DNA of 64,000 nt, from the IMG/VR virus record IMGVR_UViG_3300042864_001965; one strand, 5' to 3'. The translations under genes were made by a program, and so were the position numbers. How positions within the stretch are numbered: the stretch's first letter is position 1; each line of letters starts with the position of its first letter. The stretch is from a virus. This document shows, piece by piece, positions 30,029-31,728 of the stretch. Below the pieces are notes generated by a model. It had not been told where the DNA came from. It worked only from the letters and a program-made list of their open reading frames with translations, and ran no database searches.

Positions 30029-31728
30029 CCAGTCTCCCAGAGTGTAAGCTGCGTATAGCCTGCGTTGACTGTTTGCGCGGGTTGCGAGTGGATCGACCTT
30101 TTCCTTGTTTTTTTCTTGGGTGTCACTGGCTCGGAGGTCAAAACCAGTAAGGTTTCGAGGGTTTCTTCCCCAAGTAACAATCGGCTGGACTTGTCAAGTA
30201 ATTCCTCCTGCGCTGATTCCTTATCGAAATCCTTCAGAGGCTTAACTTCCCCGGTACAAGCCGGGTAGCTTCTTACGAAGTCTGCTTTCCCTAAGATGTT
30301 GATTGCGGCGGCCACATCTCTAGGTAAAGTACATCCACACTCTAAACATTTATGGGTGCGGGTTGATAAACTTTTTTTAACACGATTGCCACAGCGAGGA
30401 CAATCCTGGCTGGTGTAAGCTGGTTGAACTTTGATAAACTCTCGGTTGGGAGTTTTCATTTTCGTTTCAAGAAAACCGGTTAATTGTCCTAAACTAGCAT
30501 CAGCAAAGGATTTATTTAATCCCCCTTTGGCTTTCGCGTTATTGCGTTCGTAGCCTTTACCGTCTTCTCTTTTTTTCGGTTTAGGTCGTCGCATTAAATT
30601 CTTTAAGTTGAGGTCTTCTACGGCTACAGCGCCATGATTTCTAGCAATATCGGTACTTAAGGCATGATTAAATCCTTTGCGTTGTCTTGCTATTTTTTCG
30701 TGAGTTTTGGCAACTTTAGCACGAGTTTTAGCGAGATTTTTGCCGTCTTTATTTTCCCCTGCTTTATACTGTCTAGCGGTTTTTCTTTGCAGTCTTGCTA
30801 GTCTTTTTTGCCGTTTTCTATAGTATTTGGGCGGGTCAATTTGTTGCCCGTCGCTGGTACTAATTATATATTCTAGTTTTACGTCAATACCGATTGCTTT
30901 ATCGGAATCAGGTAGATCATCTACTTCAAATTCACCAAATAGACTTAGATAATATCCCGATGGGTATTTGATAATTGATACAGTAGAGGCTTTTCTGTCA
31001 CCCCACCGAATGTCTAAGGTATTGTTGACAATCTTTAAATCGCCTAATGTTTTGCCACAGCTACCTATAGATATTTTATCCCCTTTTCTAACAGCGCAAT
31101 TGCTGATCTCAGAATAAAGAGATTTAATTTTATCTTCTTTTCTTTTAAATCTAGGAAGTTTTCTGTCTAAATTCTTTTTATCGAGTTTGGTGTAAGCTTT
31201 CCAAGAATCAGCAAGCTTTTTTAAAACCCCTTGGACAAAAGCCATAGGGATGTCCTTGCATAGTTCTGGACATTTTTCTTTTGTAATACAGCCACATAAC
31301 CCAAAATAATTATCAGATTTTAACCGCCGTTGAATAGGGACATGAACAGGATAAGAGTGACCTGTTTTTTGTCTTTTTTCTCTAGCTATCTGTATTTTAA
31401 CTTTTTGCTTGCCAGTTAAATATTTGGGGGTGTAAAGGGGATTAGGAAGGGATTTACCTTTTTCGTTTTTCAGGGAGTCAATAAATTGAGGTTTTTTAGC
31501 TAAACGACGTTTAACCCGTTTAACTGGTTTTCCTGTTATTTGCTCAAGCTCGTCGTAATACTTATTAAGCTGATATTCCATCAGTAGCTCTAGTCCAAAA
31601 TTCCAGACAGCTTTAAGCTCGTCCATCCAGCGATCAATATAGGCTCGCTGAGTGGCATTAAGGTTAAGCTTTGTGTCCGCAATAGTTTTTTTGACTAGCA
31701 TGGCTTTCATGGATCGACCTTCTTTCAT
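30025..31728 (-). CDS. TnpB/Cas12-like RNA-guided nuclease candidate (RuvC residues intact, zinc ribbon), CRISPR-associated
   Basis: OrfB-type N-terminus KLNLNATQRAYIDRWMDELKAVWNFGLELL; RuvC-I AIGIDVK; RuvC-II GAVAVEDLNL; zinc ribbon CPRCGNRV...HKCLECGC; RuvC-III RDVAAAINIL. About 95 further residues follow, including PKKKTRKRS. The TAA stop (30027-30025) lies inside the first repeat. The likely start is M7 (MKAMLVKK, 31710) behind GAAGG. Confidence 0.85.
   Translation of the reverse strand: MKEGRSMKAMLVKKTIADTKLNLNATQRAYIDRWMDELKAVWNFGLELLMEYQLNKYYDELEQITGKPVKRVKRRLAKKPQFIDSLKNEKGKSLPNPLYTPKYLTGKQKVKIQIAREKRQKTGHSYPVHVPIQRRLKSDNYFGLCGCITKEKCPELCKDIPMAFVQGVLKKLADSWKAYTKLDKKNLDRKLPRFKRKEDKIKSLYSEISNCAVRKGDKISIGSCGKTLGDLKIVNNTLDIRWGDRKASTVSIIKYPSGYYLSLFGEFEVDDLPDSDKAIGIDVKLEYIISTSDGQQIDPPKYYRKRQKRLARLQRKTARQYKAGENKDGKNLAKTRAKVAKTHEKIARQRKGFNHALSTDIARNHGAVAVEDLNLKNLMRRPKPKKREDGKGYERNNAKAKGGLNKSFADASLGQLTGFLETKMKTPNREFIKVQPAYTSQDCPRCGNRVKKSLSTRTHKCLECGCTLPRDVAAAINILGKADFVRSYPACTGEVKPLKDFDKESAQEELLDKSSRLLLGEETLETLLVLTSEPVTPKKKTRKRSIHSQPAQTVNAGYTQLTLWETG
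30175..30204 (-). ncRNA. anti-repeat (tracrRNA-like or omega-RNA-like segment) inside the effector ORF
   Basis: Plus strand GTAACAATCGGCTGGACTTGTCAAGTAATT is the reverse complement of the CRISPR repeat, with 25/27 matches over the first 27 nt. Transcribed with the gene, it is complementary to the minus-sense repeats. RNA boundaries are unknown. Confidence 0.55.

Follow-up and report, generated by a model that had tools for sequence, protein, structure and literature searches.

The window, by which we mean the whole stretch of 64,000 nucleotides that was analyzed, contains a cyanophage locus in which the gene for a miniature CRISPR nuclease of type V-U2 (C2c8) abuts a CRISPR array on the same strand. 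The features that matter for the discussion below are as follows.

29483-30028, minus strand: CRISPR array of eight 36-nt repeats (GTAACAATCGGCTTGACTTGTTAAGTAGATTGCAAG; the last one degenerate) and seven spacers of 35-39 nt
29993-30028, minus strand: first CRISPR repeat, which holds the effector stop codon
30025-31728, minus strand: effector gene (ORF, NF038192, PF01385, PF07282) for a 567-aa TnpB-like nuclease, C2c8
30028-30291, minus strand: coding region of the tail, aa 480-567, predicted to be disordered from about residue 495
30037-30051, minus strand: C-terminal peptide QLTLW, aa 560-564 (L561 invariant in 40 homologs)
30097-30117, minus strand: Lys/Arg-rich patch KKKTRKR, aa 538-544, whose position is shared by the lineages compared
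30136-30173, minus strand: possible 3' extension of the tracrRNA with a GGGG-AAGAAA-CCCU stem, its boundary uncertain
30174-30201, minus strand: putative anti-repeat (UUACUUGACAAGUCCAGCCGAUUGUUAC), codons 510-519 (LLDKSSRLLL), pairing with repeat nt 1-28
30205-30240, minus strand: predicted tracrRNA stem 2 (CCUCU/AGGAG), from MFE and RNAalifold
30250-30265, minus strand: predicted tracrRNA hairpin 1, CCCGG-CUUGUA-CCGGG, codons 488-493, in frame Y-P-A-C-T-G
31738-31767, minus strand: promoter-like site TTGACA-18 nt-TAGATT with TG, a 10/12 consensus match only

The effector gene and its array

The effector matches the V_cas_c2c8 model (NF038192) with E = 9.8e-108 and a score of 361.2 bits (cut-off 350), and its nearest named homologs carry the C2c8 annotation. 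Two Pfam domains, PF01385 and PF07282, are present, and the fold resembles those of TnpB, Cas12p and Cas12f in Foldseek searches, with TnpB and Cas12p the closest structures. Residues D282, E371 and D471, as well as C443, C446, C461 and C464, are invariant among 40 homologs; judged by position, the former are candidate RuvC residues and the latter a candidate zinc finger. The model score, the putative RuvC D-E-D and zinc-finger residues, and the adjacent array are those of a type V-U2 (C2c8) locus. Two other identities were rejected. An IS200/IS605 TnpB transposon is not supported by the IS200_TnpB model (NF038281; 167.5 bits, cut-off 425) or by a Y1 neighbor, as no tnpA-like (Y1 transposase) Pfam domain occurs within 3 kb on either side or in window ORFs of at least 100 aa. 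Likewise, Cas12k of CAST systems does not fit, as RuvC is intact and Tn7 genes are absent.

The promoter-like site is located just upstream of the effector ATG, within a 43-nt element that is duplicated at 32174-32216 (93%). No terminator is predicted between the effector gene and the first repeat, and no internal minus-strand promoter is predicted in the tail before that repeat. Among the 53 window ORFs of at least 100 aa, a size limit that a shorter Cas2 would escape, there are no Pfam matches to Cas1, Cas2 or Cas4.

Spacer targets were absent from the window and the fetched loci, the first 48 of 73 spacers had no match at E <= 0.05 among 50,697 phage records, and a pattern scan of IMG/VR with the shared core of the first spacer returned only other arrays. 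Because no protospacer was found, the arrays offer no PAM, no support for interference, and no way to check crRNA polarity independently. The phage arrays are hypervariable.

The anti-repeat and the structured RNA of the tail

The first 27 nt of the repeat (GTAACAATCGGCTTGACTTGTTAAGTA) occur eight times on the minus strand without a mismatch, and a single plus-strand copy, with two mismatches, lies at 30174-30200; 100 dinucleotide shuffles yield 0.00 chance matches. The inverted copy with 25 of 27 matches that an earlier note had described is therefore real, although the coordinates given there, 30175-30204, are shifted by one base. A repeat search returns inverted arms of 27-30 nt that are 90-93% complementary and 145 nt from the first repeat, the very spacing that had been estimated. 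As minus-sense RNA, nucleotides 30174-30201 pair with repeat nucleotides 1-28 through 25 Watson-Crick pairs, two G:U pairs and one mismatch (C.U). Thus, the pairing proposed for the 5' 27 nt of every minus-sense repeat holds and extends to 28 nt, as one of the two mismatches becomes G:U in minus-sense RNA and a terminal U:G adds the 28th pair. The predicted duplex reaches -43.0 kcal/mol, far stronger than the -19.2 +/- 2.7 obtained for shuffled repeats. Moreover, when ten lineages are compared in a 10x10 matrix, the repeat that suits the window anti-repeat best is its own, two polymorphisms within it (30195 G/A and 30194 A/G) retain pairing, and population variants in the tail alter amino acids while base pairs are retained.

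Homologous loci were obtained with an alignment query; a genome scan with the single protein gave no matches. A second clade has syntenic anti-repeats, 128-147 nt from the array, whose sequence differs from that in the window, and repeat and anti-repeat co-vary both in the window lineage and in this clade (L103, L108, L165 and CL131). For example, the 37%-identical lineage L103 has a 31-nt anti-repeat of different sequence 133 nt from its array, and the repeat/anti-repeat segment GATTGG/CCAATC of L103 corresponds to AGTTGG/CCAACT in CL131. In six other lineages (L163, L002, L004, L164, L007 and L100), a long anti-repeat, gapless or gapped, does not rise above shuffled controls, and five of these (all but L164) retain the tracr stems and the pseudoknot described below, which makes the 28-nt duplex a feature of particular lineages and not a constant of the family.

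The G+C content at 30029-30300 is 49.6%, higher than in the gene body (38.3%) or the window as a whole (36.7%), in agreement with the earlier remark that the surroundings of the anti-repeat are GC-rich. When the RNA of this tail was compared across about 20 cyanobacterial and cyanophage lineages, compensatory covariation was evident in five stems, and RNAalifold reports double changes for 25 of 31 and 21 of 33 pairs in two clades. Hairpin 1, which had been recognized before but belongs at 30250-30265 instead of 30251-30266, keeps its pairing through many compensatory changes. Across 16 lineages, hairpin 1 and the pseudoknot are paired in 144 of 144 cells, compared to 80% in shuffles (none of 500 shuffles reached 144/144, slid controls gave at most 55%, and covariation is 0.52 versus 0.13), but the stem counts are inflated because hairpin boundaries in the alignment used (A4) were chosen for best pairing, whereas the pseudoknot columns were not fitted. 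Stem 2 encloses an inner hairpin, GAUUUC-GAUAA-GGAAUC, and includes a pair (alignment columns 43/88) that RNAalifold tallies as CG:6 and GC:6. The GGGG-AAGAAA-CCCU stem aligns with 'stem 4' of sister lineages (columns 132-150).

The CUUG loop of hairpin 1 covaries with the last four bases of the repeat, CAAG, and other lineages have CUUU/AAAG, CUUC/GAAG or, in L185, GUUG/CAAC. Loop CUUN and repeat end NAAG are paired in 16 of 16 lineages with four pair types, the fourth pair being GC in nine, UA in four, GU in two and CG in one. This covariation indicates a pseudoknot of the kind typical for TnpB and Cas12 guide RNAs, in which loop nucleotides 30255-30260 are predicted to form 4-6 bp with the last bases of the repeat (UUGCAAG). 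As a result, GAUUGCAAG, which the earlier note left single-stranded together with the spacer, is probably not so, because the covariation with the loop involves its final 4-6 nt. Another anti-repeat that would serve GAUUGCAAG in the window tail was considered and dropped, since the candidate amounts to CUCGCAA with one mismatch, and the motif CUUGCCA of CL131, L103 and L108 has no equivalent in the window.

The orientation of this RNA can be read from its wobble pairs. The G:U pairs of the stems and the polymorphisms that exchange G:U and A:U work solely on the strand of the gene, and we rejected transcription of the plus strand because these pairs would become A.C mismatches. At the Rfam gathering threshold only two tRNAs are detected, and no known RNA family covers the tail. 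A co-varying anti-repeat and a predicted pseudoknot with the 3' end of the repeat are the features of a tracrRNA-dependent type V system. Since both the stems and the repeat/anti-repeat pairing covary, the suggestion that the anti-repeat in the effector coding sequence marks a built-in scaffold resembling a tracrRNA or omega RNA is supported computationally, and we consider it very likely that this is a phage-borne type V-U2 locus whose tracrRNA lies in sense orientation within the last ~90 codons of the effector.

A purely cis-regulatory explanation deserves comment. The inverted copy might pair with repeat 1 in the co-transcript to form an RNase III site or an attenuator, and would thereby set effector mRNA stability, translation of the tail, or read-through into the array. 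Indeed, in the MFE structure of a 345-nt co-transcript (z = -4.6), repeat 1 is the cis partner of the anti-repeat; the duplex is extensive and nearly perfect, and the region before the array is free of predicted terminators. Regulation alone, however, leaves the conserved upstream stems unexplained, as well as the covariation between the loop and the last 4 nt of the repeat, which matches the pseudoknot of TnpB and Cas12 guide RNAs, and all eight repeats, not just the first, are equally complementary to the anti-repeat. We hold this explanation to be improbable, but such a role could coexist with the tracrRNA function.

Coding capacity of the tail

No in-frame stop codon interrupts the tail in 18 of 24 lineages, versus 117 and 217 stops in the other two frames; the frame-0 total of 10 counts the genuine terminal stops of the group-B clade and the decayed tail of CL131. 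Except in CL131, the ORF always ends at -8 to +27 nt relative to repeat 1, and in the window the TAA stop codon (30025-30027) lies inside this repeat. AF2 assigns pLDDT values below 50 to residues 501-538 and 545-567. The Lys/Arg patch and the QLxLW peptide persist despite synonymous changes of Leu and Gln codons and indels of two codons. The pattern QLxL(xL)[WF] is present in 40 of 69 homologs with a long tail and has 0 matches elsewhere in those proteins. QLTLW resembles the bacterial sliding-clamp-binding consensus QL(D/S)LF (PMC6511837) and may be a candidate clamp-binding peptide.

Synonymous variation is suppressed in the tail; in one clade, 95% of third codon positions are invariant at nt 48-107 past the RuvC-III codon, while the figure for the gene body is 20-65%. 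The codons that face each other in hairpin 1 are CCN with GGN and CGN with NCG, so that Pro is matched with Gly, and Arg with Arg or Trp. Because the tail is protein-coding with a conserved C-terminal peptide motif, we regard it, on comparative grounds, as a dual-use segment that is genuinely translated as well as RNA, and not merely RNA that an ORF happens to read through.

The opposite reading would be that the protein ends near residue 480-495 and that the frame beyond it is open only as a consequence of an ordinary intergenic tracrRNA, structured and rich in GC. Third positions in one clade are as conserved as the others, which means that coding periodicity is absent there, CL131 retains the RNA stems although a nonsense codon interrupts its tail right at the beginning, and the tail is predicted to be disordered, as are Cas12n tails, reported as dispensable in a preprint (10.64898/2026.03.27.714800). 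Nevertheless, the scarcity of in-frame stops, an ORF end that tracks repeat 1 outside CL131, and peptide motifs that outlast codon changes make this reading very unlikely. That the inverted copy is a functionless product of recombination between array and neighboring gene is highly improbable: in CL131, what seems to be a recombinant anti-repeat is joined to a duplicate of the repeat 3' end (L001:4495-4529), indicating that such exchanges happen, but the inverted copy is kept in ~24 phage haplotypes with pairing-neutral polymorphisms only, its syntenic counterpart in the second clade has a different sequence, and the surrounding stems covary.

Related systems and a working model

The closest parallel in arrangement is Cas12n (type V-N, formerly V-U4/C2c9), whose tracrRNA overlaps the ORF in a disordered C-terminal loop, according to two sources (PMC12216341; preprint 10.64898/2026.03.27.714800). 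In these accounts, Cas12n resembles the window effector in being a miniature nuclease of TnpB descent with a CRISPR array behind its gene, a disordered tail that encodes the tracrRNA, and a guide composed of several stem-loops and a terminal repeat:anti-repeat stem. The two are nonetheless separate families. The window protein passes the C2c8 model and not c2c9, a Cas12n structure (PDB 9j09) matches it over residues 296-483 only (E = 2e-16, the RuvC region), and in the window, unlike in Cas12n, the stop codon lies within repeat 1. Furthermore, the Cas12n tail is described there as dispensable, whereas the window tail ends in the conserved K/R patch and QLxLW. By these comparisons, the window effector is one that would work like Cas12n, with a tracrRNA in the ORF and a disordered tail, yet is no member of that family.

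In IS200/IS605 TnpB, the reRNA matches the 3' end of tnpB (PMC8612924), which agrees with the earlier statement that TnpB guide RNAs are encoded there, and the putative scaffold of the window would likewise be a sense-strand transcript spanning the 3' end of its nuclease gene. The effector fold is closest to ISDra2 and ISFba1 TnpB (TM 0.75-0.76, normalized to target), but the protein has an extra REC insertion and a ~90-aa tail, and its scaffold would be split into a tracrRNA and repeat-spacer units that replace the single guide. TranC nucleases, which are TnpB-like proteins beside CRISPR arrays with a split omega RNA (Jin et al. 2025, as cited in PMC13565253), embody the evolutionary idea of the earlier note, a transposon-to-CRISPR intermediate. 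LaTranC matches the window protein weakly (E = 8e-6 by sequence; Foldseek E = 4e-11), and the TranC clades analyzed in the Cas12n preprint (10.64898/2026.03.27.714800) showed no tracrRNA inside a disordered tail. With precedents in Cas12n, TnpB and TranC, and with C2c8 a recognized subtype, the proposed transposon-to-CRISPR intermediate is not a new architecture.

The best structural match is Cas12p ('Cas12 hacker'; PDB 9jfs; Foldseek E = 3e-19), phage-encoded like the window effector, although at the sequence level only residues 274-468 match. According to text on this protein (preprint 10.1101/2025.01.20.633832), it works with a tracrRNA and a repeat of 37 nt whose last four nucleotides form a 4-bp pseudoknot with the 5' region of the tracrRNA, a contact characteristic of Cas12 tracrRNAs. 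The pairing is AAAC:UUUG there and CAAG:CUUG in the window; Cas12p is thioredoxin-dependent, and that text does not describe its tracrRNA as residing inside the ORF, unlike that of the window.

A V-U2 locus was reported without a tracrRNA in cyanophage vB_AphaS-CL131 (MG209611; PMC6293099), and reviews present V-U2 likewise (PMC11641405); neither account includes a search of the ORF interior. The phage collection holds no DNA nearly identical to the window, so the window is not CL131. The two loci share the effector family (38% identity), the gene-then-array layout, the cyanophage context, and the tracr stems with an anti-repeat, which in CL131 measures 21 nt and lies 147 nt from the array. 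They differ in the sequences of repeat and anti-repeat and in the tail frame, which is broken by CGA->TGA in CL131 and intact in the window. We found no description of an ORF-embedded tracrRNA for V-U2, with the primary TranC and Cas12n papers known via papers that cite them, and such an arrangement thus appears to be undescribed in this subtype.

The following model would account for the locus. One transcript may run from the promoter-like site at 31738-31767 through gene, tail and array, and its 3' part would be processed into a tracrRNA of ~100-135 nt, with approximate boundaries, and crRNAs. The processing enzyme could be the nuclease, as it is in TnpB and Cas12n, or else RNase III with the 27-bp duplex as its substrate. 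Loaded with paired tracrRNA and crRNA, the RuvC-active nuclease could then cut DNA matching the spacer, presumably in competing mobile elements. The same tail DNA would also be translated into a disordered extension ending in the K/R patch and QLTLW, and it probably doubles as the CRISPR leader.

A bolder version, which we offer as speculation that may well prove wrong, assigns the ~270-nt V-U2 tail three uses at once, as tracrRNA gene, translated clamp-binding tether, and CRISPR leader. The disordered tether, with its K/R patch and terminal QLxLW/F peptide, might couple the nuclease to DnaN on replicating DNA, such as that of a rival phage or plasmid, or might instead echo the replication-fork lifestyle of IS200/IS605 elements. 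With the stop codon set within repeat 1, new spacers would enter directly behind the gene via host adaptation enzymes. We found no literature report of a clamp-tethered nuclease of the Cas12 or TnpB type.

Of the original V-U subtypes, only V-U2 continues to be listed as uncharacterized, and these observations provide a concrete guide-RNA model for it, with coordinates for hairpin 1 and the pseudoknot, the internal stems, and the anti-repeat. Under this model, the nuclease, 567 aa in length or about 480 aa if the tail is left off, would be directly testable as a compact editor. The QLxLW peptide and the hypervariable arrays raise the questions of how, and against what, phages use the system. 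The tail also offers a clean natural case in which RNA structure dictates amino-acid covariation. Finally, V-U2 would be a second family, independent of the first, whose guide scaffold overlaps protein-coding sequence, and this would strengthen the 'RNA splitting' scenario for the path from TnpB to Cas12.

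The effector gene and its coding tail

The window is phage DNA, with genes for a terminase, a baseplate hub, a 3262-aa tape-measure-like protein, Rha and two tRNAs (tRNA-Met and tRNA-Tyr, 26333-26405 and 26894-26977). Its 53 ORFs of at least 100 aa include two FGE-sulfatase-domain proteins and one C5 cytosine methylase, and none gave a Pfam match to Cas1, Cas2 or Cas4. The effector carries the Pfam OrfB_IS605 and Cas12f1-like TNB domains, passes the NCBI curated C2c8 (type V-U2) model (361 bits; cut-off 350) and falls below the transposon TnpB equivalog cut-off (167 vs 425). Among 40 homologs, its candidate RuvC residues D282/E371/D471 and the four cysteines of its zinc finger do not vary, and the nearest solved structures are those of phage Cas12p 'hacker', ISFba1 TnpB and ISDra2 TnpB. 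Two copies of a 43-nt element (93% identity) lie at 31732-31774, upstream of the effector gene, and at 32174-32216, upstream of a neighbouring 123-aa ORF; each holds a minus-strand promoter-like TTGACA-18-TAGATT.

Features of the locus (window positions unless a related locus is named)
31738-31767: promoter-like site just upstream of the effector ATG
31728..30025, minus strand: effector ORF, 567 codons, containing the anti-repeat
30250-30265, minus sense: hairpin 1, CCCGG-CUUGUA-CCGGG
30205-30240, gene's strand: stem 2 with inner hairpin
30097-30117: KKKTRKR of the tail C-terminus
30037-30051: QLTLW of the tail C-terminus
29483-30028, minus sense: CRISPR array, eight 36-nt repeats, GTAACAATCGGCTTGACTTGTTAAGTAGATTGCAAG
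L002:4505-4531, L004:4229-4252, L007:4208-4228, L100:4217-4246: ORFs of related loci reading into repeat 1 for 6-9 codons

Judged by its reading frame, the effector tail is really coding. Of 24 lineages, 18 are free of in-frame stops from the RuvC-III aspartate codon up to repeat 1, and the frame-0 total of 10 counts the decayed tail of cyanophage vB_AphaS-CL131 (CL131) along with genuine terminal stops in the group-B clade; the other two frames hold 117 and 217 stops. Measured from the start of repeat 1, the ORF's end lies at -8 to +27 nt in every lineage but CL131. The window's stop codon (TAA, 30025-30027; context G-TAA-C, 30025-30028) lies inside repeat 1, which in several cyanobacterial loci encodes the last 6-9 effector residues (e.g., AGEISSNTS or GETDLGELG).

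The tail is variable and predicted to be disordered (pLDDT <50 at residues 501-538 and 545-567). C2c8 tails carry a Lys/Arg patch followed ~10-15 residues on by a terminal QLxLW (variants QLxLxLW and QLxLF), and this layout recurs in related loci L002, L004, L005, L007, L010, L011, L103, L106, L107, L163, L164, L183, L184 and L196. L561 of the motif is invariant, and the strict pattern occurs in 40 of 69 long-tail homologs and nowhere else in those proteins. Because the Gln and Leu codons vary synonymously among lineages (CAG/CAA; CTT/CTA/TTG/TTA/CTC/CTG) and the longer QLxLxLW form is a two-codon insertion, selection there acts on the peptide. Located in a flexible C-terminus, QLxLW resembles the bacterial sliding-clamp-binding consensus QL(D/S)LF (PMC6511837) and is a putative beta-clamp-binding motif; our literature search found no paper tying Cas12 or TnpB to the sliding clamp. 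In one viral contig (L109:4049-4100), the array starts within the tail, ~250 nt past the RuvC-III codon, and the tail has lost its 3' portion, QLxLW included, by deletion.

Anti-repeat, hairpin 1 and predicted pseudoknot

Our main result is that, by comparative criteria, the tail DNA is also a structured RNA. A search of the window with the first 27 repeat bases, allowing up to three mismatches, returned eight minus-strand matches, which are the eight repeats, and a sole extra copy on the opposite strand (30174-30200, two mismatches); shuffled sequence gave 0.00 matches. The inverted repeat copy that an earlier note had placed in the effector gene is thus present, one base away from the position assigned to it. 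Pairing reaches 28 nt (30174-30201), and in minus-strand RNA the duplex with any repeat comprises 25 Watson-Crick pairs, two G:U pairs and one C.U mismatch, with a predicted energy of -43.0 kcal/mol vs -19.2 +/- 2.7 for shuffled repeats. The surrounding region is GC-rich, as had been noticed (49.6% across 30029-30300 vs 38.3% in the remainder of the gene). The distal flank of the array (29425-29482) is of low complexity, with recurring GGCAAGG / CAAGGCAAGG units that look like the repeat 3' end (GCAAG), perhaps as decayed copies of it.

Directly past RuvC-III, every C2c8 lineage has a 'UAC-stem-loop-stem-GAA' element, hairpin 1. The CCCGG hairpin singled out previously is the window's version of this element, whose stem is kept through compensatory changes (CCGG/CCGG, CCCA/UGGG, CCGGA/UUCGG, CCCG/CGGG, CGCG/CGCG, CGCGC/GCGUG, CGCUC/GAGUG, CCGA/UUGG and CCCUC/GAGGG). 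Moreover, loop nucleotides 1-4 covary, lineage by lineage, with the last four bases of the lineage's own repeat, forming a predicted pseudoknot.

Hairpin 1 loop and repeat end, by lineage
CUUG with CAAG: window, L004, L162/L196, L183, 'YRAWAWE' clade
CUUU with AAAG: L163, L002/L174, L164, L184
CUUC with GAAG: L107
GUUG with CAAC: L185

In a register alignment of nine pairs across 16 lineages, 144 of 144 cells form standard pairs (shuffles, 80 +/- 2.5%, with 0/500 at 100%; slid controls, at most 55%). The covariation score of this alignment is 0.52 vs 0.13; its stem boundaries were chosen by us, and the pseudoknot columns were not. The earlier note had left GAUUGCAAG single-stranded, which the covariation of loop and repeat end does not bear out: the probable pairing partner of the loop CUUGUA is CAAG, extended in the window to UUGCAAG.

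Conservation of the RNA among lineages

RNAalifold models of two clades add stems in the interval from hairpin 1 to the anti-repeat, with 25/31 and 21/33 pairs kept through double changes. In the clade containing CL131, nucleotides 48-107 past the RuvC-III codon are 95% invariant, third codon positions included, compared with 20-65% in the gene body. Several tail 'protein motifs' (YPxxxGE / YRxxxRx, GxD[AV]xT and APSPEYGDP) are, on this comparative reading, RNA stems read in frame.

Anti-repeats likewise follow their repeats. Locus L103, at 37% protein identity, has a 31-nt anti-repeat of unrelated sequence 133 nt upstream of its array (-33.3 with its own repeat vs -20.9 +/- 2.6), and syntenic anti-repeats lie at 128-147 nt from the array in L165, L108 and CL131. 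The variable halves of these anti-repeats follow those of their own repeats (e.g., GAUUGG/CCAAUC vs AGUUGG/CCAACU), and in a 10x10 tail-repeat matrix the tails of the window and of L103 each show by far their best pairing with their own repeats. Five V-U2 lineages have no significant long anti-repeat, though stems and pseudoknot are kept; two local hairpins stand in its place. The sister lineages L163, L002, L174, L004, L164 and L107 likewise lack a significant long anti-repeat; there (alignment A5, columns 94-150) two local hairpins covary, UCUAnnnnUAGA and a GGCUGUGAUGCAGCC-like one that reads in frame as GxD[AV]xT.

Among 16 haplotypes of the window's phage population, the anti-repeat is polymorphic at two sites (30195 G/A and 30194 A/G), which change Asp to Asn or Ser and in RNA merely interconvert G:U and A:U; a hairpin 1 polymorphism (30253 C/U) likewise yields G:U. 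The G:U pairs of anti-repeat, hairpin 1 and stems are possible on the gene's strand only, which argues against plus-strand transcription. Taken together, these comparisons show that hairpin 1 (the predicted pseudoknot partner of the repeat 3' end), stem 2 with its inner hairpin, and the anti-repeat are encoded in the tail's sense strand.

The V-U2 locus of CL131, a related but distinct cyanophage, is known, and a tracrRNA was stated to be absent (PMC6293099). Its tail has a nonsense codon near the start, and the tracr stems are nonetheless conserved, a hint that the RNA role of the tail may be more indispensable than its protein role. A CGA->TGA change at tail codon 31 (L001 4405-4407) disrupts the frame, with further in-frame stops after it. 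The CL131 anti-repeat (L001 4495-4529) continues into a copy of the repeat 3' end, CCAACT...AGTTGGCAAG, giving an sgRNA-like hairpin.

A putative guide RNA and its relatives

We found no predicted terminator or minus-strand promoter in the tail between gene and first repeat, which, together with the promoter-like site, suggests a single gene-tracr-array transcript. Predicted folding of the 345-nt 3' part of this putative transcript places the anti-repeat on repeat 1 (z = -4.6); in cis, such pairing might give the natural single guide suggested in the earlier note. Processing by the nuclease itself, as reported for TnpB and Cas12n (preprint 10.64898/2026.03.27.714800), and/or by RNase III cleavage of the 27-bp duplex would yield a tracrRNA of roughly 100-135 nt and crRNAs, which would guide the RuvC-active nuclease.

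The 24 near-identical phage contigs hold 73 distinct spacers with little sharing (~24 contigs, L082-L098 and L166-L170, with effectors 97-98% identical, compared with the window array). Spacers in common occupy the gene-distal end, which points to entry of new ones beside the ORF tail and implies active acquisition there, apparently without phage-encoded Cas1/Cas2. Several spacers are variants of one target. Searches of the window and the related loci, of 50,697 phage records with the first 48 spacers, and of IMG/VR with one pattern turned up no protospacer, and so no PAM.

The literature we found describes no V-U2 tracrRNA (PMC11641405; PMC6293099). According to PMC13565253, the omega-RNA split is formalised in the TranC 'transposon-CRISPR intermediates', and a Cas12p preprint (10.1101/2025.01.20.633832) describes a 4-bp pseudoknot with the repeat 3' end, said to be general for Cas12 tracrRNAs. 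The built-in tracrRNA or omega-RNA-like scaffold that the earlier note proposed gains support, all of it comparative, from covarying stems, pseudoknot and anti-repeat co-variation. The architecture works like those of Cas12n and TnpB, yet the effector belongs to another family. An ORF-embedded scaffold is known for Cas12n and TnpB, and C2c8 is probably a further family with the same arrangement.
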